Of a DNA stretch of 64,000 nt, positions 6,260 through 64,000 are shown piece after piece; within the stretch, counting starts at the first letter, position 1; each line of letters starts with the position of its first letter. The notes under the pieces are model-generated. The model saw only the letters and a program-made list of their open reading frames with translations. It had not been told where the DNA came from and did not search any database. A program made the translations under genes and the position numbers. The stretch is from a virus (lineage: Duplodnaviria; Heunggongvirae; Uroviricota; Caudoviricetes): positions 64,833-128,832 of IMG/VR virus record IMGVR_UViG_3300027710_001079; one strand, 5' to 3'.

Positions 6260-6666
6260 GATTTCAATGTTTCCATAGTGATAATTTTGTCAATTTCTTT
6301 GCCGAAGTCTGCATCGTTATTAATAACATAGAGACCGTTTGAACTGCGATCTGTCTTTTTATCATAGCGGCGTGTCTCTATAACTCTACCACCGTTGGCA
6401 TTATAAACAGTAAACTGAATTGCACGTTCTGGCTGATCAATACTTGGAGGACCTACACTTATTAAGGAACCGGATAGTCGATTTATTTTATTTGCCGATT
6501 CACGTTCTTGATTCTGACGTTTCTCATCTTCCCATACTTCGCGACTTATTTTTGCAAACCAGCGTTTAATAAACCCTGGTCGCTTAACTTTCTTTTTTTG
6601 TATTGCAGATTCAATTCTGTAGTCTACAGTTGACTCTTCTGCCGCGTATACTTGACCGTAACTCAT
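6256..6666 (-). CDS. Hypothetical protein
   Basis: 136-aa ORF with 4-nt overlaps to both neighbours. Confidence 0.75.
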   Translation of the reverse strand: MSYGQVYAAEESTVDYRIESAIQKKKVKRPGFIKRWFAKISREVWEDEKRQNQERESANKINRLSGSLISVGPPSIDQPERAIQFTVYNANGGRVIETRRYDKKTDRSSNGLYVINNDADFGKEIDKIITMETLKS

Positions 6667-7103
6667 TTGTATTCCTTATCTAAATTTACACTGGTTAGTC
6701 CAGCAATGATTTGGAAGTTATCCCACGCTTTCTTAGCGACTGGATTTGACTCCAGTTCACTACTTGGCAGAACTGCTTCTAGCCAAATTTCAGGACGGCG
6801 TGTAGGATGAGCTCCAAACTTACGGGGCTGATGGAACTTGCCGGATTCCCACAGCTCAATGGACACACTGCGAAACTGATCTTCATCAGTGTAGCCTGCC
6901 CATTCTGGGGCACTGCGACTGAATCCGCTAAATGAACTCATGTTCGGACCGCCACCGCCGTAACCATTCCAAATGCCTTGCCACTGGGCGTCATCATGCG
7001 GATCAAAATCAGTACGAGCAATAATGATTAAGACATCGTCAATGTCCACAACACCATCTACAATATCGCGAACGCATCGGCTATAACTCAGACCAATTTT
7101 CAT
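6663..7103 (-). CDS. Hypothetical protein
   Basis: 146-aa ORF in operon. Confidence 0.75.
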   Translation of the reverse strand: MKIGLSYSRCVRDIVDGVVDIDDVLIIIARTDFDPHDDAQWQGIWNGYGGGGPNMSSFSGFSRSAPEWAGYTDEDQFRSVSIELWESGKFHQPRKFGAHPTRRPEIWLEAVLPSSELESNPVAKKAWDNFQIIAGLTSVNLDKEYK

Positions 7104-7252
7104 TTCTTTTCTCTCAGTAGTTCTTGTTTCATTCTATCACGCCAGCGAATTGCGTCTTCTTCGTAATCGAAGTGCGGACTTAATTCGTGATCCTCGTCCA
7201 GGTCGTCGACCCACACATAAACTTCTTTATAGTCGTCACAGAGTAATTTCAT
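7100..7252 (-). CDS. Small hypothetical protein (50 aa, not in track)
   Basis: MKLLCDDYKEVYVWVDD...; fills the gap with ATGA overlaps at both ends. Confidence 0.65.
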   Translation of the reverse strand: MKLLCDDYKEVYVWVDDLDEDHELSPHFDYEEDAIRWRDRMKQELLREKK

Positions 7253-7710
7253 TCTTCAAACCTTGCTTTACGTTTGGCTTCGTGTTCTTCAAAATGTTTA
7301 TCACATACATTTTTAATCCAACCGGATGTTTGTTTAGTAGCAGGTGAACCGCAATCTTCACAAGCTCTTTCTGCCCAGCTCTCTGCCATCCTTACCATTC
7401 CGCTGATTTCATCGTCTCCACCATCGTAGTAGAAACGTAGTCCGCCAAATTTTTCTTTAATTTGACGAACTACAACTTGTGCTACTTCGTCTGGAATAGT
7501 GTGATTATACGGATTGTCTTCTAGCAATTGAGCACGAGTCTTATTCTTCCAATCGATATGACCCTGAATATTAACACACAATGCTTCAAGAATGGGCCAC
7601 CAGCCTTCACCACAGCAAAAACCTCCGTAGCCCTCTTCGAACATTTTTGGAAAGCGAGTTTCCATTTGTTCAGCAAACACCTCATACGGTTCTAGTTCAT
7701 CATCACCCAT
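7249..7710 (-). CDS. Hypothetical protein with a C-terminal CxxC...C-H zinc-ribbon-like motif
   Basis: KEKFGGLRFY and CEDCG...CDKH; likely start MGDDE at 7710. Confidence 0.7.
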   Translation of the reverse strand: MGDDELEPYEVFAEQMETRFPKMFEEGYGGFCCGEGWWPILEALCVNIQGHIDWKNKTRAQLLEDNPYNHTIPDEVAQVVVRQIKEKFGGLRFYYDGGDDEISGMVRMAESWAERACEDCGSPATKQTSGWIKNVCDKHFEEHEAKRKARFEE

Positions 7711-51565: not shown

Positions 51566-52360
51566 TTAATTATAACTTATTTTCTTCTCCGACGCAAGTC
51601 CTAGAAACATCAAAGTTTGGATAACATATCGACCTGGATCAAACTGCCACCATTCTTTTCCAATCTGCCAACTACCCGGAGCAGAGTGATGGTTATAGTG
51701 CCAGCCTTCACCGAATGTTAAGTACGACCACCACCAAACATTATGTGATTGATCTCGATAGTCAGTTGCAACCCGTGTTCCGAACATTGGGCTATGATCA
51801 ATCCAATTACTCAATCTAGAAGCCATTGTGTTAAAAAATACAGGGATAATGTAGAGAAATACTGCAATCATTGGATCAATTGCCACTAACACTGCTACTA
51901 CTAGTAAGACTATTAGCATATAGTACTCGTGCATAAATCTATGAACAGGGTCGTTTATAATATCTTTTACAGACCATTTGTTAAATTTTCCACCGTAGTC
52001 ACCAACGAACGCACCTATTGGGCCTAGTACTACTGGGCTGTGCGGATCACCGGGTTTGTCTGCAAATTTATGATGTGCTCTATGTACAAATACCCATCCC
52101 ACTGAGCTACCAGTACAGCCTAAATTTCCAAAGAAGCTAAACAAATATTCTAAGGGTTTCCAAAGTTGATACGATTTATGTGTCAACAATCTATGAAAAG
52201 TAACTGTAATACCGAGACAGGTAATTAAAAAATATCCAACTAAAGAAAGTAGCCAGTAGTTCCAACTAATAGGAGTTACTATTGCCCACACAAAAATACC
52301 AGCAGCGGCTAACTGCATTGCAATAAAAAACCACTCTCGTGGATAAAAATACTGTTTCAT
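51566..52360 (-). CDS. Membrane fatty-acid desaturase 1 (delta-9/DesC-like)
   Basis: His boxes HRLLTH, HRAHH and WHYNHH; start corrected to MKQYF. Confidence 0.9.
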   Translation of the reverse strand: MKQYFYPREWFFIAMQLAAAGIFVWAIVTPISWNYWLLSLVGYFLITCLGITVTFHRLLTHKSYQLWKPLEYLFSFFGNLGCTGSSVGWVFVHRAHHKFADKPGDPHSPVVLGPIGAFVGDYGGKFNKWSVKDIINDPVHRFMHEYYMLIVLLVVAVLVAIDPMIAVFLYIIPVFFNTMASRLSNWIDHSPMFGTRVATDYRDQSHNVWWWSYLTFGEGWHYNHHSAPGSWQIGKEWWQFDPGRYVIQTLMFLGLASEKKISYN

Positions 52361-53115
52361 TTTTTTACAATCCTTATCACGTAAGATATTAAATCTACTT
52401 CCCACCAATGTTCTTGCAAGTTCCATTTACTGGGATTTGTATGATGGTTATTGTGCCATCCTTCGCCCCATAGTAAAATTGCAAAAGGCCATAAATTTTT
52501 ACTTTCATCACGGTGCTGGTGGTTAGTATAACCGTGACTGTGTCCAAAATATGTAAAGCTGTTTAATGCAAGATGAGTCATTGCAAGTGGCACAGCCCAT
52601 GCAAAATAAAATAGCCAAGGACTTATTAAAAATAACAACCCTGCCCACCCTATTACTAAAATCTTATAATATTTGTTAATCCATAGATGATGGTAGGTAA
52701 AGAGATCTCTAATTAGATATCTTTTTAATTCTCCACCATAATTTAAAATGTGTGGGAAAAACACTCTCCAACCGTTGATATTAGGTGCATGAGGATCTTT
52801 TTCAGTATCGCTGTACGCATGATGTTCTCGATGAATGTGAACCCATCCTAAAATGCTTCCTCTACCTGCCTGGATAGCAAACCAACTGAACAGCCATTCT
52901 AATATAGGATATTTGAATTGAAAACTTTTATGGGTCCAATATCTATGCATCATCATGCTGACCCCTACTCCTGCATACAAAAAGTACCCAAGTAAGATAG
53001 TCAATGCTTCGGTAACTCCTATGTCGAAAATCCAAAAGCCGGCTACAGCAATCAATAGACTGATGATCTGTAAAAAGGATACGAATCCCGAGCTTGCTGC
53101 AAAGATATTTTTCAT
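52357..53115 (-). CDS. Membrane fatty-acid desaturase 2
   Basis: His boxes HRYWTH, HREHH and WHNNHH. Confidence 0.9.
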   Translation of the reverse strand: MKNIFAASSGFVSFLQIISLLIAVAGFWIFDIGVTEALTILLGYFLYAGVGVSMMMHRYWTHKSFQFKYPILEWLFSWFAIQAGRGSILGWVHIHREHHAYSDTEKDPHAPNINGWRVFFPHILNYGGELKRYLIRDLFTYHHLWINKYYKILVIGWAGLLFLISPWLFYFAWAVPLAMTHLALNSFTYFGHSHGYTNHQHRDESKNLWPFAILLWGEGWHNNHHTNPSKWNLQEHWWEVDLISYVIRIVKK

Positions 53116-57023: not shown

Positions 57024-58481
57024 AAGAGTTTCAAGATATTTCATTATTCTTGTAACTATTCTTGATCGTATTTCTTCTGAATATGTATTATTAGTTGAAG
57101 TTATAATTTTTCTTATTTCCGGCCAGGTGTAGTCAAGCCCTGCAAGTCCCACAGTATCGCCCCATCTCATAGTTGGTTTTTTGTTCTTTGATTCTAGATA
57201 AGAAATACTGTTCTTTGATATTTCAATAGCGTCAGAGTATGTCAATCCCATATTGTTAATCCAACCTTGCTCGTTAGTTGAGTAACCGTACTTTGTAGGG
57301 TTTTTCATAAACTCACTACTCCATGCAAAATTTTTAATAGTTGGATCTAAAAATAATGGATTTATATTTGCAGCATCTAGTTTGAATGCATCGCTACCTA
57401 CTATTTCAATCCATTCTTCTGCTGACTTTTTATCTTCGTAGGGTAGTCCTATCATAAAATTACCAATTGTAAAGACATCATCACCCCATATGTCTTTACA
57501 TTGTTGAAGAGTATCTATTATTTTTTCTCTAGAAAGTCCTTTTCCGATTGCTTTATTTCCTCGATCGTTTAGGCTTTCAACTCCAAATAATGCAACTTTT
57601 AATCCACTTTCTTTTAATAATGAGATTGTCTTTGGGTGTGCATGTAATAAATCTAACCTCAAATAAGTTACAAAATTAATTTTAAAAGGTAATTTTGAAT
57701 ACACATTATCATATAGTATTTCTAATTTTTCAACACTATCATTGTGTGTATCGTCTAAGTAGACGTAATTTGTTGTACGATATCTTTCGTAATTTTTTAA
57801 AAATTGATTTTTTAATATTTCAGTTTCTTTTAAGTAGTCTAATTTCTTTTTACCGTTTAACGGAAATGAACAAAAATTACACCTAAATATACAACCTCTA
57901 GATATTTCTATCGGCAATCCTTCTCGGTAATCAATAGCATCTGACTGGTGCCACGAAAATTTATCTGTACTAAAATTAAATGTAGACGCTGTAATATCGT
58001 CATTAACAATAACACACCCATCTTCTACTGTATATTTAAAAAATGGATTTTTATCCTCGCACCATTTAGTAAAATTAATAACTGATGTATCGGCATATCC
58101 TTCTATATAAGTATCAAACAACTCTCCGCTGTCTCTTTTAAATGCTTTTGCACCGCCAGATACAAACCGGCATTTAGATTTTTTTGAAGAAACTAAATTT
58201 TTAATTTTCTCAGTTTGTTCTTTTGTAAACAGTGTTTGGGAAGAAGCCATTGCAGGAGTAAGGAATGTAGTTGAAAATCCAATCCAAATTGTTCCTTCAT
58301 CAACATGCCGATCTAATATACTTAAAAATTTGTCAAACCCGATTTTTAAAATTTGAGGGAAATATTCAACAACTTGAACTGTGTAACCATTGTTCCTTAA
58401 TTGGTTTGCAATTTGATATGCTCCAATTGATCTAAAAGGGATTGAAAAACCCACGCCAGTGAAAATTATAATTTGTGCCAT
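57015..58481 (-). CDS. Cobalamin-binding-type (class B) radical SAM enzyme
   Basis: B12-binding-like N-terminus (IGAYQIA, IGFST, SGG); SRGCIFRCNFC, LDDT, FGVES and MIGLPYE. Confidence 0.85.
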   Translation of the reverse strand: MAQIIIFTGVGFSIPFRSIGAYQIANQLRNNGYTVQVVEYFPQILKIGFDKFLSILDRHVDEGTIWIGFSTTFLTPAMASSQTLFTKEQTEKIKNLVSSKKSKCRFVSGGAKAFKRDSGELFDTYIEGYADTSVINFTKWCEDKNPFFKYTVEDGCVIVNDDITASTFNFSTDKFSWHQSDAIDYREGLPIEISRGCIFRCNFCSFPLNGKKKLDYLKETEILKNQFLKNYERYRTTNYVYLDDTHNDSVEKLEILYDNVYSKLPFKINFVTYLRLDLLHAHPKTISLLKESGLKVALFGVESLNDRGNKAIGKGLSREKIIDTLQQCKDIWGDDVFTIGNFMIGLPYEDKKSAEEWIEIVGSDAFKLDAANINPLFLDPTIKNFAWSSEFMKNPTKYGYSTNEQGWINNMGLTYSDAIEISKNSISYLESKNKKPTMRWGDTVGLAGLDYTWPEIRKIITSTNNTYSEEIRSRIVTRIMKYLETLLR

Positions 58482-58486
58482 CGTCC

Positions 58487-58498
58487 TATTTATAAATA
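58487..58498. promoter_or_regulatory. Palindromic back-to-back late promoter TATTTATAAATA
   Basis: A TATAAATA octamer on each strand, 5-6 nt from the two divergent ATGs. Confidence 0.7.
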
Positions 58499-58504
58499 TG
58501 GGTT

Positions 58505-59401
58505 ATGCAGCCTATTAATTTTTATTACGAACTATCGCCAGAACAAAATCATTTTCCTGTTATATATGTTGATATTACTCATCGATGTAACATGGAGTGT
58601 GCTAATTGTTTTATTCCTAACAGAGATGTTCCAGATATGGATAAGGATAGACTTTATGATGTATTAAAACGATTACCCTTTAAAACTGAGATCAGAATGT
58701 TAGGAGGGGAACCAACTGTTCGAAAAGACATATTTGAAATCGTAGAAAAAATTAGAGAGCTAGGACACAGACCAAATATGCAGTCTAACGGTCTTATGCT
58801 TGCTAAACCAGGATATGCTAAAGACTTAGCCAAGGCAGGTATGCGTAGCATCTATATTAGTGTTAACGGTGCAGATGATAATGATGTTTACGAGACCATG
58901 GACGGAATGCGATGTGCTGAAAGAAAAATTGCAGCATGGCAAGCGTGTGTTGATGCTAAGATGAATGTTAATTTGGGGTGCATCATGCAAAAAGGCACTA
59001 ACGATCATATCCCAGCTAGACTATTTGAACTGTCAAAGACCATCGGTGGCAATCCTATTTTTAGATTTAGAAACGTTGGACAAATTGGAAGATACACATT
59101 AGAGCAAGATCAAAATTGGACATTTGAGGAAACTATAAACAATGTATGTGCAGTGTTTGGAAAAGACCCAGAATGGGCTAAGAATAGAAACACTATTGCG
59201 GGATTCACTGAGCCCAACATTATTTTCTTTCCGTTAGATGAAACTAAAAAATTAAAAACGCCTTGGGTAAAAATTACAAACTGGAGCCCCACAGATGGTA
59301 AAGTTCCTGATCCAGGCAGCAAGAGAAGAGGTCGATTAACTCAAAATTTTAAAATTGCTCCTCATTTTGAACATATCATTTTAAATGAAAATGTCTATTA
59401 A
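58505..59401 (+). CDS. Radical SAM enzyme (MoaA/PqqE-like core)
   Basis: CNMECANC, LGGEP, SNG and ISVNG. Confidence 0.9.
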   Translation: MQPINFYYELSPEQNHFPVIYVDITHRCNMECANCFIPNRDVPDMDKDRLYDVLKRLPFKTEIRMLGGEPTVRKDIFEIVEKIRELGHRPNMQSNGLMLAKPGYAKDLAKAGMRSIYISVNGADDNDVYETMDGMRCAERKIAAWQACVDAKMNVNLGCIMQKGTNDHIPARLFELSKTIGGNPIFRFRNVGQIGRYTLEQDQNWTFEETINNVCAVFGKDPEWAKNRNTIAGFTEPNIIFFPLDETKKLKTPWVKITNWSPTDGKVPDPGSKRRGRLTQNFKIAPHFEHIILNENVY

Positions 59402-60128
59402 ACCTCTTAGTACTCCGTGGAACGATTGTACAGACACCTTGTTACATTCTAAATCTCTTGACGAGTGGTACACAGATAAACCTAAATTAGGATACAATGT
59501 TTTTAAGTTGCCTAGTCAGTATTCTTTTAATCTCAAAGAAATGCAAGACCAAGTTTCTTCTCTTTTAGAAAAACAAAATACAATAAGCATTTCTAAAAAT
59601 GCCAAAGGTGAAAAATTCAATAGGTACAAGGGACTGGGATTTTTTTCTAGACCTAATTGTGCAACTCCGCTCGAGGATCATTTTACCAGAAGAGATGTTA
59701 AGCACGGTGTAACATATGCCGACGATCTGCATCTAAATGCGAATCTACCAGACTTGATAGAAAACGATTTTACAGAAACTACCTGTATAATGAACGAGTA
59801 TTTTAATAATATCTTTTCGTCTTTTAAATCAAAGATTACAAAGGCTAGCTTATTAGAATTGCGGCCTATGGGATGGTTAGGATCGCATGTTGATTTTCCT
59901 TACTATAAAACAGTAAGGTTACATACTAGCATATTTGGTAATGAGGGTGCTTGGTACGAAGTTGAAGGAGAAAAATTTCAACTACCTCAAGACGGGCATT
60001 GGTATTTTATAGATACTGGAAAGTATCATTCTGTTTGGAACCACGGACCAAACAGTAGAATCACCTTAAATGTAAATTTAGAAATTCAAAGTGATCCTAG
60101 AGAATTAGCATTACTGGGTCTTTTGTAA
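59385..60128 (+). CDS. Asp/Asn beta-hydroxylase-like Fe(II)/2OG oxygenase
   Basis: GSHVD...RLHTSI...GHWYFIDTGKYHSVWN...R. Confidence 0.75.
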   Translation: MKMSIKPLSTPWNDCTDTLLHSKSLDEWYTDKPKLGYNVFKLPSQYSFNLKEMQDQVSSLLEKQNTISISKNAKGEKFNRYKGLGFFSRPNCATPLEDHFTRRDVKHGVTYADDLHLNANLPDLIENDFTETTCIMNEYFNNIFSSFKSKITKASLLELRPMGWLGSHVDFPYYKTVRLHTSIFGNEGAWYEVEGEKFQLPQDGHWYFIDTGKYHSVWNHGPNSRITLNVNLEIQSDPRELALLGLL

Positions 60129-60353
60129 AGACTTAATGTAGTCAATAACCATCTGCACTGTTTCAATAGTTTCGGCAACCTCCTCGTCTATTTCTAATCC
60201 AAATTCATCTTCAACAGACAGTAACATTTCTACAGTATCTAAGCTGTCGCCACCTAAGTCTTCAACAAACTTCATGTTGGGCTGTATATTTTTAATATCA
60301 ATCCCTAGCTGTTTACTGATAATTTTTTTTACTTTTAGTTCTACTTCATCCAT
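60111..60353 (-). CDS. acpP: Acyl carrier protein
   Basis: DLGGDSLDTVE phosphopantetheine-attachment Ser motif; EDEFGLEI. Confidence 0.95.
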   Translation of the reverse strand: MDEVELKVKKIISKQLGIDIKNIQPNMKFVEDLGGDSLDTVEMLLSVEDEFGLEIDEEVAETIETVQMVIDYIKSLQKTQ

Positions 60354-61116
60354 GATCTTTCCTTAATGCTATTAATTTAATTAGCTGTGCTGACATATCA
60401 AATTCCCACCATTTGATTTTTTGATTCCATTGTTGTGGATTTTTATGATGGTTGTTATGCCATTCTCCAACAATGTACCCTACAAAAATATTGTTGAAAG
60501 AGCCATCGCCCGTATTGAAATTTCTATAATTTAATATTGCTTCTCGATGATTTAAAATATTAATCGATATATAAGCTAACCACAGCAACAGTACACTTAC
60601 ATTATATACAAGTGCTAACCTAAAGTCAATGAATCCAAGTATTACATAAAATAATAGAATAATTCCTAGATAGTAGTTGTGTGCTATCATTATCCATTTA
60701 TCGTTTAGAGATTCCGCAGTCCGTATCGGAATCTTTTTAAAGTTCCAATCAAACATTGCTATTTTAAAAAAACTTAGATACTTGCCGTGTGGATCTTTTT
60801 CTGTATCTGAAAATATATGATGTGCTCTGTGCGACATAGCATATGCGTAAGGTGAACCTGCACATGCCAGCGGCGATGCAATACTCATGATAACATGCCA
60901 AAATCTAGTTGTTTTAAATGAGTTATGTGAAAAATATTTGTGTAATGCAATATTATGCAGTACCTGCATAAAAGCATAAAACAACAAGGCTGAATACAGT
61001 ATAAAAGAGTATTGCCCTGTTTGGACAAAATATCCCAATGCTGCTGTGCCTAATAATACTTGTAAGATAATAGTGCGTGTTGTAGTTGCAGCACTGCCCC
61101 GAAACATTTTTTTCAT
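60346..61116 (-). CDS. Membrane fatty-acid desaturase 3
   Basis: His boxes HKYFSH, HRAHH and WHNNHH. Confidence 0.9.
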   Translation of the reverse strand: MKKMFRGSAATTTRTIILQVLLGTAALGYFVQTGQYSFILYSALLFYAFMQVLHNIALHKYFSHNSFKTTRFWHVIMSIASPLACAGSPYAYAMSHRAHHIFSDTEKDPHGKYLSFFKIAMFDWNFKKIPIRTAESLNDKWIMIAHNYYLGIILLFYVILGFIDFRLALVYNVSVLLLWLAYISINILNHREAILNYRNFNTGDGSFNNIFVGYIVGEWHNNHHKNPQQWNQKIKWWEFDMSAQLIKLIALRKDHG

Positions 61117-61907
61117 TAGCGTTTTCTAATAAGAGGAATAAACCATTTTGAAATATCAATTTCTCCTGGCTTATGTGCATAGTCATATTCCCAGGGCCGT
61201 GCGTGATGATTGTTGTGCAGGCCGAGACCTAATGTAAACCAATTGAACCAAGGAACATTTTGACTTGTGTCTCCGCAATCTGGGTAGTTTTGATAACTGC
61301 CTTTATGCGGAATATGTCCCCATGTATTAATTAGACCAGATAAATGGAACTCTATTACCGTTGCTGCACTTATAGAAAACACAGCTAGTCTCCAATCAAT
61401 TAAGGCTAGCAATAAAAAAGTACCCCAATATATAGAATAATAACGTTGATGATAAAACTTTAATACAGGATCTTTAATCATGTCTTTGACTAACCACATT
61501 TTTTTAAAATCCCATTTATGATTTAACCAAAGGAAATAACTCCACCAAAACCCTCGAGTAGGACTGTGTGGGTCTTTGTCAGTGTCAGAATATTTGTGAT
61601 GCAACCCTTGATGTAACACTCTCAACATTAACGGACTACCTGTGCCTGATAGCATTCCTAAGTATGCTCCTAGTTTAGCAATCCACGGATATGTTTCAAA
61701 ACTTTGATGGCAGTAATATTTGTGAATAAAAATTCCAAATCCGATATGTCCAAATAGGAACCATGAAGGGTAGATTAGCAATAACCACCATAGTGATGTA
61801 TCTCCTGTTCCTAAAGACATTAATCCTAGTAAGAATATAATGTGTTGTGGGATATACACTCTTCTAAAATTCTCTCCAAGTTCGTTCCAATAATTTAATA
61901 GTTTCAT
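61116..61907 (-). CDS. Membrane fatty-acid desaturase 4
   Basis: His boxes HKYYCH, HQGLHH and LHNNHH. Confidence 0.9.
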   Translation of the reverse strand: MKLLNYWNELGENFRRVYIPQHIIFLLGLMSLGTGDTSLWWLLLIYPSWFLFGHIGFGIFIHKYYCHQSFETYPWIAKLGAYLGMLSGTGSPLMLRVLHQGLHHKYSDTDKDPHSPTRGFWWSYFLWLNHKWDFKKMWLVKDMIKDPVLKFYHQRYYSIYWGTFLLLALIDWRLAVFSISAATVIEFHLSGLINTWGHIPHKGSYQNYPDCGDTSQNVPWFNWFTLGLGLHNNHHARPWEYDYAHKPGEIDISKWFIPLIRKR

Positions 61908-61945
61908 TAAAATATTTATCTGTATTCCAGGCCACTAAATAAAAG

Positions 61946-62515
61946 ATGCTTCCGGTAAACTCTAACCCCCACGATGATTTAAGCACAGAAGAGCTTCAAA
62001 GATTTTCTAAAGTTTTAATTATAGAAAATGCTATCAGCGATAAAGTATGTGATGAATTGGCCATATTAGGAACTTGTCAAGTATTTCCTGCGGTTAAAAA
62101 ACACACATATCAAAATAATATGAATCTAGAACATTGTTTTCTTGAAAAAGATCATATGATTCATAGTCTAATATCGCACCACTGGGAGAGAGCAGCGGAC
62201 GAATTCAACTTTGACATTTCTTTTTTAGAGCCGCACAAATTGCAAACCTATGCAAGTGGCGGATATTTTAATTCTCACATCGACAATTATCACGGATTAA
62301 ACTTACCTGTTGATAGGAAATTATCAGCAACTATACAACTAACTCACGAAACACATTACGAAGGCGGTGATCTCATAATCGGAAATACCTCAATGCCTAG
62401 GACAAAAGGAACTATGATTATTTTTCCAAGTTTCTATCCTCATAAAGTAACAGAAGTTACAAAGGGAAGGCGATGGTGTGTAGTTGCATGGGCATGGGGA
62501 CCTTATTGGAAATAA
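61946..62515 (+). CDS. Fe(II)/2OG oxygenase (PKHD/prolyl-4-hydroxylase-like)
   Basis: SHID...KLSATIQL...YEGGDL...FPSFYPHKV...GRR. Confidence 0.9.
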   Translation: MLPVNSNPHDDLSTEELQRFSKVLIIENAISDKVCDELAILGTCQVFPAVKKHTYQNNMNLEHCFLEKDHMIHSLISHHWERAADEFNFDISFLEPHKLQTYASGGYFNSHIDNYHGLNLPVDRKLSATIQLTHETHYEGGDLIIGNTSMPRTKGTMIIFPSFYPHKVTEVTKGRRWCVVAWAWGPYWK

Positions 62516-62516
62516 T

Positions 62517-63020
62517 ATGTATAATAGATTTTTTTGTAAAGCATTAAAAGATTTTGATCAAGATTGGTTATCTCAGATAGCATCATCAACGGAAAAAATA
62601 TGGTGGACTGCAAAAAATAATTCTGACGGTAGCTTAACATTTGTAAAAAATAAACCCAATGCTCAGTTTTACATGGCCAAACTACAGCATTTTCCTAATA
62701 TTGTTGATAAAATTTTAGAACAATATCCAGATGCTATGATTAAGAATAGTTATGTTACTAAATGTTTTCCGGGGTATCATATGGTGCCGCATATTGATCC
62801 TAATAGAACAACAGCTATCATTATTCCATTAGGCGATAATAAAGGCAAGATAAGTTTTTATTTTAAAAAATTTAAATTATTCACTCACACTTATAAATCG
62901 CCTACTCTTACAAGAGTGAATATTTTGCATAGTGCGGAGAACAATAGCGATCAAATCAGATATTCTGTTACATTAGAAGTTCCAGGCAGTTACTGGACTA
63001 ATGTAATTAAGTATCAATAA
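62517..63020 (+). CDS. Cupin/2OG-oxygenase-like protein
   Basis: MVPHID...ILHSAEN...RYS; start corrected to MYNRF. Confidence 0.65.
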   Translation: MYNRFFCKALKDFDQDWLSQIASSTEKIWWTAKNNSDGSLTFVKNKPNAQFYMAKLQHFPNIVDKILEQYPDAMIKNSYVTKCFPGYHMVPHIDPNRTTAIIIPLGDNKGKISFYFKKFKLFTHTYKSPTLTRVNILHSAENNSDQIRYSVTLEVPGSYWTNVIKYQ

Positions 63021-63627
63021 CCGTTCCTCTATAGTCAGTGTAATTCTGACCTTTTAAGATTTCTACTCGGTGCTCTTGTTTTAATACAAACATCCTTACT
63101 ACTACATCGGACCACTCGCACACATCTCTAAATATGTCAAAGGCCTCTATATTTGTAAGTTGGCCTCGAGGTGCAACACTTTCGTCAAACCAAGAATATC
63201 GTCTTGCCATCGGACTATGTTTTTTTATTATCTTATTTCGTATATTGTGAAGACTCTCAGGTGCAGTCATCCAAAATTTAAAATAGCCCTTAGACTCCAT
63301 TCTGGATATCATTAACTCTAACGCAGGCACCATCATGGGTGCAGTCTTACTAAAATGATTTGTGCTTTCCAATACCTTGGTTAACCCAATATACCAGCCA
63401 CCTATTCTCGGTAATTCAAACCCTACATACATACACAAAGGAGAGTCGTTTTCATCGAACACCATTGAAATATGAGTAATTCCCTTTTGTATTCTTTCTT
63501 TTAATATTGCAATCTTTTTATCCAATTGCTCGTCAGTTAGCTCTACTCTAACTGATCTTCTATCTTTTGAAAATAGTGTTTTTATTAAATGTACTTCGTC
63601 CGCCGTGATAAATCTAGTAGTATGCAT
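63007..63627 (-). CDS. Hypothetical protein, possibly GNAT-like
   Basis: 206-aa ORF; alpha/beta pattern loosely GNAT-like; TAAATA 6 nt upstream. Confidence 0.55.
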   Translation of the reverse strand: MHTTRFITADEVHLIKTLFSKDRRSVRVELTDEQLDKKIAILKERIQKGITHISMVFDENDSPLCMYVGFELPRIGGWYIGLTKVLESTNHFSKTAPMMVPALELMISRMESKGYFKFWMTAPESLHNIRNKIIKKHSPMARRYSWFDESVAPRGQLTNIEAFDIFRDVCEWSDVVVRMFVLKQEHRVEILKGQNYTDYRGTVIDT

Positions 63628-63679
63628 AATCTTTATTTAGTGGCCAGGTTTAAGGATAAATAGTATTAGGAGAATCTAT

Positions 63680-64000
63680 ATGCCAATTACAGTTACATTT
63701 CATGCCCAAAGAAATAATCTTGATCATGAATTCTTTTGGGAGTCAACTGACCCTGAAATTCTTGAAATTACAACTATGGTCAACGAACTAGCAAACTCTA
63801 GTGACATTGTACATACATTTAATAAGTCGGAAGATGGTCTGAGTGCAGAAAGTAGTTTCTATCTGTTAAACTACGATTATTGGATGGCGTTTGTTGGATT
63901 AATTCGATACAGTTCAAATAGCGATTCTTTAGGAAAACGAGATTTGTATTTTAAAAATGCTGGACACACATTGACATTTCGAGTTACTGAGCAGGACACT
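63680..64000 (+). CDS. Hypothetical protein (runs off the window edge; not in track)
   Basis: MPITVTFHAQRNNLDHEFFWES... after an AGGAG SD; TAAATA at 63657-63662. Confidence 0.7.
   Translation, partial: MPITVTFHAQRNNLDHEFFWESTDPEILEITTMVNELANSSDIVHTFNKSEDGLSAESSFYLLNYDYWMAFVGLIRYSSNSDSLGKRDLYFKNAGHTLTFRVTEQDT

Follow-up and report, generated by a model that had tools for sequence, protein, structure and literature searches.

Desaturases have been described in several groups of aquatic phages. Cyanophages carry DesC-like delta-9 lipid desaturases as single genes (Roitman et al. 2018, PMC5776448), and reports on pelagimyophages from fresh water and on phages of Lake Baikal list single acyl-CoA desaturase genes (PMC7029224, PMC7678222). 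Acyl carrier proteins (ACPs) are also found in phages: the cyanomyoviruses P-HM1 and P-HM2 encode an ACP and an ACP synthase (Sullivan et al. 2010, PMC3037559). Membrane desaturases of the stearoyl-CoA desaturase (SCD) type accept ACP-bound chains in the alkyne and polyyne pathways of bacteria (PMC9828172, PMC8406139). Here, we analyzed a window of 64,000 nucleotides (the whole stretch of DNA under study, positions 64,833 to 128,832 of the Caudoviricetes record IMGVR_UViG_3300027710_001079 in IMG/VR), in which two SCD-type desaturase genes, Des1 and Des2, are followed by an ACP gene. The pairing of Des1 with the ACP was constant in all the orthologous loci that we compared. We suggest, and give it an even chance of being right, that Des1 and Des2 introduce double bonds into acyl chains carried by the phage ACP, as the core of a lipid-tailoring module of five to six genes. 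In the literature on phage desaturases and acyl carrier proteins, we found no description of this coupling or of the module.

Like the cyanophage and pelagimyophage enzymes, Des1 and Des2 belong to the same Pfam family, carry the three His boxes, and are auxiliary genes of T4-like aquatic phages. So far, such enzymes have been described as single, with host glycerolipids as substrates, and with no mention of a carrier, whereas this genome encodes five membrane desaturase paralogues (four inside the window and the fifth outside), two of them in an ACP operon within a module. Unlike the cyanophage DesC of Roitman et al., Des1 and Des2 share 28-30% identity with cyanobacterial DesC1, and the nearest match in an isolate is a Pelagibacter myophage. 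The ACP resembles those of P-HM1, P-HM2, and many jumbo phages (PHROG 5934) in being AcpP-like and belonging to a large phage, sometimes with its own phosphopantetheinyl transferase. No client enzyme is assigned to those ACPs, whereas here the ACP has a fixed neighbor, Des1.

The operon and its promoter-like box are as follows:

61116-61907, minus strand: Des1, 263 aa, membrane di-iron desaturase of the delta-9/SCD type
60346-61116, minus strand: Des2, 256 aa, divergent second desaturase
60111-60353, minus strand: ACP, 80 aa, AcpP-type acyl carrier protein
61919-61913, minus strand: ATAAATA box, 5 nt before the Des1 ATG, resembling a T4-type late promoter

The preliminary description of this DNA had reported 1-nt and 8-nt overlaps between the three genes, and both were read directly in the sequence: Des1 and Des2 share TAATG at 61116, and Des2 and ACP share ATGGATGA at 60346-60353. 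An AGGA-type ribosome-binding site precedes the ACP start. It had also placed the trio under one TAAATA box, in agreement with the ATAAATA before Des1 and with the lack of such a box upstream of either Des2 or ACP. Genome-wide, TAAATA was present within 40 nt upstream in 35 of 208 crude gene calls vs. ~5% of shuffled upstream regions, and in the cassettes of the surrounding island it stands at -10 to -12 of each first gene. The pattern is real, and the box is a putative promoter. Given the single box before Des1 and the genome-wide pattern, it is a fair inference that Des1, Des2, and ACP form one late-type transcription unit. Contigs from four independent freshwater, lake, or subsurface runs span both gene junctions with almost no differences; the operon is not an assembly artefact. 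A near-identical stretch was present in ~18 lake, freshwater, or subsurface runs from ~13 studies. At the other end of the operon, the convergent ACP and cupin genes share 18 nt at their 3' ends (60111-60128), and this tail-to-tail overlap recurs in relatives (6 nt in locus L005).

At the protein level, Des1 and Des2 matched the Pfam family FA_desaturase (PF00487) with 69.1 and 37.9 bits, respectively (cut-off 29.7), and both align across the His boxes with the solved stearoyl-CoA desaturases 4ZYO and 4YMK (Des2 to SCD1 with E 5e-12). The boxes of Des1 are HKYYCH (62-67), HQGLHH (99-104), and HNNHH (231-235), with NTWGH at 194-198; those of Des2 are HKYFSH (59-64), HRAHH (96-100), and HNNHH (220-224), with NILNH at 186-190. 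The nine His ligand columns of the SCD1 set (Hx4H, Hx2HH, Hx2HH, and the fourth-helix His) are invariant in the five paralogues. Every iron-binding His is kept in both desaturases, as the earlier claim of complete tripartite His boxes had it. The variant Hx3HH second box of Des1 noted at the same time is real as well: HQGLHH is an insertion of one residue, the box is conserved with H99, H103, and H104 invariant among 20 Des1 orthologues, and the insertion is common to the fifth paralogue outside the window (HRGYHH). Hydrophobic stretches, from Kyte-Doolittle windows only, lie at ~43-61 and 159-193 in Des1 and at ~13-56 and 152-185 in Des2. Pairwise identities were 24-34% among the five phage paralogues and to DesC1, acyl-CoA, Ralstonia, and polyyne desaturases.

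Orthologues of Des1 formed 27 clusters with 58-87% identity, all metagenomic. Across lake metagenomes, six of six single-nucleotide polymorphisms in Des1 were synonymous, and from these we conclude that Des1 is under purifying selection. Only one sub-lineage has Des2 between Des1 and ACP, and most Des1-ACP loci lack it; in L011, L256, and the P0122 contig, the equivalent position holds Des2 orthologues with 51-67% identity. Elsewhere in the window, a second overlapping desaturase pair (51566-53115; 286 and 252 aa) comes with a TAAATA box of its own but no adjacent ACP, and it is kept as a pair in the relatives L007 and L008.

The ACP had been called canonical on its GGDSL motif, and the call holds: the serine of DSL is present (motif DLGGDSLD, Ser37), and the protein passed the cut-off of the NCBI AcpP equivalog TIGR00517 (93.4 bits vs. 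70.45). It matched the Pfam PP-binding family with 53.9 bits, its best solved matches were proteobacterial AcpP (E 5e-20), and D36, S37, L38, and D39 were invariant in 14 relatives. It is the sole PP-binding gene of the 192,832-bp viral record from which the window comes.

In several relatives, a candidate activating enzyme for the ACP lies at the locus itself. The L018-L022 lineage has a clear AcpS gene (PF01648, 54 bits) divergently adjoining a radical S-adenosylmethionine (SAM) enzyme-Des1-ACP-GNAT operon. L011 and L256 have a divergent AcpS-like gene of 99 aa between Des2 and ACP, and L013 has the same kind of gene between Des1 and ACP. This 99-aa protein gave a weak Pfam match and is ~30% identical to the AcpS of L018-L022. 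Besides the desaturases, the genome encodes a full-length FabF-like ketosynthase of 408 aa, located ~50 kb off and outside the window (G000:C1:178621-179847; L254:6622-7848, minus strand), which matched TIGR03150 with 276 bits, below the cut-off. This gene adjoins genes for ClpS, Hsp20, and a heme oxygenase/bilin reductase. A complex prediction for Des1 and ACP, made without control runs, scored 0.27 vs. a mark of 0.32. Net charge, taken as a proxy for the ACP-docking surface, did not differ between ACP-adjacent and other desaturases (p 0.62).

We retrieved 17 loci with a Des1 orthologue, corresponding to ~12 distinct contigs. At all of them (17/17), the ACP was the next carrier-related gene downstream of Des1 on the same strand, with overlaps of 3-43 nt wherever nothing was inserted; in three lineages, Des2 and/or the small AcpS-like gene stood between the two. 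Genes for a GNAT-fold protein, a cupin, and a radical SAM enzyme change order and strand between lineages, while the Des1-ACP pair stays constant. When a Des1 profile was run against the genomes of 185,579 species, the best cellular identity was 33%, and the best cellular relatives were not cyanobacterial DesC. An ACP within 5 kb was found at 0 of the 80 bacterial desaturase loci nearest to Des1 and at 30 of 83 viral desaturase loci. Adjacency to an ACP was found in several separate desaturase lineages, with at least nine changes on the tree. Gene content, conservation, linkage, and intact catalytic residues are direct observations from these sequences.

We favor desaturation on the carrier because the Des1-ACP pair is invariant and AcpS lies inside the operon in relatives, because the ACP is AcpP-like and the ketosynthase is another ACP client, and because the linkage is missing from the 80 nearest bacterial loci and Des1 is under purifying selection. 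ACP-linked and ketosynthase-linked desaturase operons in other phage lineages further support this reading, as do the nine His ligands kept and the precedent of a polyyne pathway with the same Des-Des-ACP order. The general idea of the preliminary description, desaturases working with a dedicated phage ACP, is supported by the 17/17 linkage, the AcpS of the relatives, the operons in other phage lineages, and the 0/80 count in bacteria; the acetylenation that it attached to this idea is not.

From the genes we infer each biochemical step, as well as acyl-ACP as the substrate form, the sites of the double bonds, and the nature of the product. The operon would be the core of a conserved phage module with the GNAT-fold protein, the cupin, and the radical SAM enzyme. 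First, the ACP would be converted to its holo form, by the phage AcpS in relatives and here by the host AcpS or by an enzyme encoded in the half of the genome that was not recovered. Acyl chains would then be loaded onto the ACP by the type II fatty-acid synthase of the host, with help from the phage FabF-like ketosynthase. Des1 and Des2 would add double bonds to the ACP-bound chain, with host ferredoxin-type electron donors. Finally, the modified chain would pass to host acyltransferases for membrane lipids or, alternatively, to the GNAT-fold protein, the cupin, and the radical SAM enzyme, giving a tailored lipid.

Several points weigh against this reading. Gene linkage does not reveal which molecule the desaturases accept, and where relatives of this enzyme type from cyanophages and bacteria have been characterized, their substrates are glycerolipids or acyl-CoA. 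Searches of the 192-kb record with PF01648, PF00501, PF00301, PF00975, PF00111, and PF01553 were all empty: there was no phosphopantetheinyl transferase (PF01648), no acyl-ACP synthetase/ligase (PF00501), and no ferredoxin or rubredoxin. These absences are provisional because the record has an estimated completeness of only ~55%. Des2 evolves fast, being 57% identical to its L011 orthologue vs. 87% for Des1, and four of its five metagenome variants were non-synonymous (60400, 60919-60974), although most lay near contig ends and in one run; its constraint may be weaker. On the side of the carrier, 67 of 80 similar viral ACP loci were not near desaturases and 13 were, so phage ACPs clearly have other uses too. 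The same count rules out that all phage ACPs serve desaturases. Since only 13 of the 80 have a desaturase, the pairing is specific to certain desaturase lineages and is not a general trait of phage ACPs.

The same data can be read as ordinary membrane remodeling, in which Des1 and Des2 would be acyl-lipid (DesC-like) or acyl-CoA desaturases of the delta-9 type that raise the unsaturation of host membrane lipids during infection, a role proposed for cyanophage desaturases, while the ACP, AcpS, and FabF-like proteins would be co-expressed and separately boost fatty-acid synthesis. We rate this below desaturation on the carrier, but as a strong competitor. The Pfam matches and the SCD1 alignment place both enzymes in the SCD/DesC type, phages are known to carry single desaturases as auxiliary genes (PMC5776448, PMC7678222), and fabF together with a stearoyl-CoA desaturase gene has been reported in freshwater pelagimyophages (PMC7029224). 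Moreover, the three remaining desaturases of the genome have no adjoining ACP, and the 192-kb record gave no match to a ligase (PF00501) or thioesterase (PF00975) of a thiotemplated pathway. However, membrane remodeling leaves unexplained why the ACP always comes next after Des1 while other genes shuffle, why AcpS is inserted between desaturase and ACP, why bacterial homologues lack the linkage (0/80 loci), and why the GNAT-fold, cupin, and radical SAM genes accompany the pair (16/17, 10/17, and 17/17 loci, respectively).

The polyyne and alkyne cassettes (JamABC, Cay, Pgn, and Ccn) are like our operon in placing SCD-type desaturases beside a dedicated ACP. As polyyne reference we used the plasmid cluster of Streptomyces sp. 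Mg1 (L089), whose order is fatty acyl-AMP ligase, desaturase, desaturase, ACP, desaturase, hydrolase, rubredoxin, and P450. With the local Des-Des-ACP order shared and dependence on an ACP plausible, both enzymes could be desaturase/acetylenases acting on ACP-bound chains, as in JamB/JamC and Cay/Pgn, with a reactive alkyne or polyyne lipid as product. These systems require a ligase, a thioesterase, a desaturase triad, and an electron carrier (PMC9828172, PMC8406139), and polyyne formation needs the intact triad including a delta-12-like enzyme (PMC9828172). The operon, in contrast, has two delta-9-type enzymes, and most relatives have one; we found no delta-12-like third desaturase. Neither a fatty acyl-AMP ligase (PF00501) nor a rubredoxin (PF00301) was found in the 192-kb record or in the records of four relatives; the thioesterase search over the same records gave no PF00975 match and did not extend to alpha/beta-hydrolase-type thioesterases. 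The partners of the phage genes are instead the GNAT-fold protein, the cupin, the radical SAM enzyme, and, in relatives, AcpS, and the phage ACP is AcpP-like. Des1 and Des2 were 24-28% identical to polyyne desaturases, which does not exceed their identity to DesC or acyl-CoA desaturases.

We also built a tree of 161 sequences, which included the Streptomyces enzymes and not JamB, CayB/C, or PgnE/F themselves. In the free tree, the cellular references formed one clade in which the Streptomyces polyyne enzymes DesI and DesII grouped with delta-9 enzymes (SH-aLRT 99), and Des1 and Des2 fell outside it, against the polyyne reading. In its favor, an approximately unbiased (AU) test did not reject joining the Des1 clade with the polyyne enzymes (p 0.54), the deep tree being weak. 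With that p value, the tree is used as evidence neither for nor against membership in the polyyne clade. Altogether, we regard alkyne or polyyne synthesis as very improbable, and the analogy with JamB/JamC and caryoynencin-type acetylenation drawn in the preliminary description is not supported: the defining partners were not found in these records, and the identity is no higher than to DesC.

Another bacterial parallel is a cluster on a Ralstonia megaplasmid (L090:6444-11705), which contains, in this order, genes for a ferritin, a cyclopropane-fatty-acid (CFA) synthase-like protein, a thioesterase, acpP, a delta-9 desaturase, a patatin, and a lysophospholipase. As in the phage, an ACP and an SCD-type desaturase stand directly side by side, here with the ACP first, and there is no fatty acyl-AMP ligase. 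Unlike the phage operon, it is a bacterial locus with other partner enzymes, and the identity is ~26-28%. To our knowledge, this cluster is uncharacterized.

The genes around the operon, with their frequency among the 17 Des1 loci, are as follows:

58505..59401, plus strand: radical SAM enzyme, 298 aa, with a MoaA/SPASM-like core (PF04055, 72 bits); 17/17 Des1 loci
59385..60128, plus strand: cupin of the Asp/Asn beta-hydroxylase family (PF05118, 35.6 bits); adjoins the ACP in 10/17 Des1 loci
61946..62515, plus strand: 2-oxoglutarate (2OG)-Fe(II) oxygenase, 189 aa (PF13640, 54 bits; phrog_61), with its own TAAATA box
62484..63020, plus strand: conserved protein of 167-178 aa with an HxD...H pattern, from phmmer synteny; 8/17 Des1 loci
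63007..63627, minus strand: GNAT-fold protein, 206 aa, from AlphaFold2 and Foldseek; 16/17 Des1 loci

Together, the GNAT-fold protein, Des1, the ACP, the AspH/LpxO-family cupin, and the MoaA/SPASM-like radical SAM enzyme make up a conserved phage module. The 206-aa protein had no Pfam or PHROG match; its AlphaFold2 model (predicted local distance difference test, pLDDT, 90.2) matched GNAT N-acyltransferases in Foldseek with E 2e-8 and template-modeling (TM) scores of 0.54-0.59, and its ESM Atlas features agree with a GNAT fold. In relatives, its gene lies directly upstream of Des1 or downstream of ACP. The cupin belongs to PF05118, which also comprises the lipid hydroxylases LpxO and OlsC. Its best solved relative is the beta-hydroxylase Cpz10 (7V4F, E 1e-7), a caprazamycin hydroxylase that acts on an amino-acid-nucleoside antibiotic intermediate (PMC9814697). 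For the radical SAM enzyme, the names TrsS, Tes, and MoaA were discarded, as the NCBIfam matches were far below the cut-offs and reflected the common core only. In the ESM Atlas, the radical SAM enzyme and the cupin fell only in virus-specific clusters of the same Pfam families, which gave no functional lead.

The 178-aa protein has H103, D105, and H149 invariant, and it showed no relation to the cupin by hhalign or to solved structures by profile comparison. The 2OG-Fe(II) oxygenase is divergent from Des1, and the arrangement is identical in the P0122 contig. Some relatives carry genes of a TctA/TctB/TctC tripartite tricarboxylate transporter beside the module (L008:12260-14245 and 6425-7342; L018:4602-5498).

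At the genome level, the locus is surrounded by tail-fibre genes and an extended series of genes for oxygenases, methyltransferases, and glycosyltransferases, which is a hypervariable island typical of T4-like aquatic myophages. The virus is a large freshwater T4-like phage resembling a pelagimyophage. From its genes it is not evidently a cyanophage, the sole isolate with a related desaturase being the Pelagibacter phage Mosig (30% identity). The island of Mosig has a cupin gene adjoining a desaturase gene, together with MoaA-like radical SAM genes, and no ACP there. A megablast of positions 58000-64000 against isolated phage genomes gave zero matches.

This setting bears on a further explanation, in which the ACP would tether a small substrate other than a fatty acid, and the desaturase-fold enzymes, the GNAT-fold protein, the cupin, and the radical SAM enzyme would make a small molecule or modify a surface component of the phage or the host. 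The desaturase-fold superfamily also includes hydroxylases, the module lies in a hypervariable island next to tail-fibre and glycosyltransferase genes, the nearest solved relative of the cupin works on a nucleoside antibiotic intermediate, and the island of Mosig is similar without an ACP. However, the ACP is of the housekeeping AcpP type and not a specialized carrier, the desaturases keep the SCD-type ligand set, and the presence of a FabF-like ketosynthase gene argues for fatty chains. We find a non-fatty-acid pathway improbable.

Extending carrier-bound desaturation to the whole module, the genes could make up a self-contained thiotemplated lipid-tailoring pathway, in which the ACP and AcpS carry the chain, the desaturases modify it, the GNAT-fold protein hands it to an amine acceptor, and the cupin and radical SAM enzyme finish the product. 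We consider this unlikely. The product made during infection could be, e.g., an unsaturated hydroxylated N-acyl amine or a species like lipid A or an ornithine lipid. The locus would then count as a biosynthetic gene cluster carried by a lytic phage, with a membrane-bound acyl-ACP desaturase outside alkyne pathways.

Apart from the Des1 loci, other desaturase arrangements were found in phage contigs. In L040:3138-5756, and likewise in L039 and L053, a tail-fibre-like DUF4376 gene is directly followed by a Des-ACP-Des-Des operon. The first desaturase of this operon (293 aa) shows a weak, long-branch grouping with the delta-12-like third polyyne desaturase, and the parts list of the operon resembles the bacterial polyyne triad, but without ligase or thioesterase. 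A 179-kb contig has an operon of a B12-type radical SAM enzyme, two desaturases, and a ketosynthase (L257:1811-5928), and a protein of this operon was present on at least 24 contigs of up to 363 kb. Tandem arrays of 7-10 desaturase paralogues were observed in L031:7196-12730, L080:2648-13597, L070:712-9719, and L034:1595-16626; an ACP is part of some of these arrays, and an AcpS gene is also present in L080 (413-700). The diversity of phage desaturases by far exceeds that of the cellular references used. Finally, a contig in a Pseudobdellovibrio metagenome-assembled genome bin (L175:4251-10747) has two desaturases with homologues of the radical SAM enzyme and the cupin of the module; this contig could come from a prophage, from a phage whose sequence was mis-binned, or from a cell with its own version of the module.

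Phage desaturases have so far been treated as single membrane-fluidity genes, and phage ACPs have been left without assigned partners. A fixed desaturase-ACP pair, together with an activating enzyme and three tailoring enzymes, gives a testable function for both gene classes. If the desaturases accept acyl-ACP, membrane-bound acyl-ACP desaturation would no longer be confined to the rare alkyne and polyyne pathways but would also take place in phages that abound in fresh and marine waters. With loci of up to ten paralogues, the very large radiation of phage desaturases also hints at a more elaborate lipid chemistry in infected aquatic bacteria than supposed so far.

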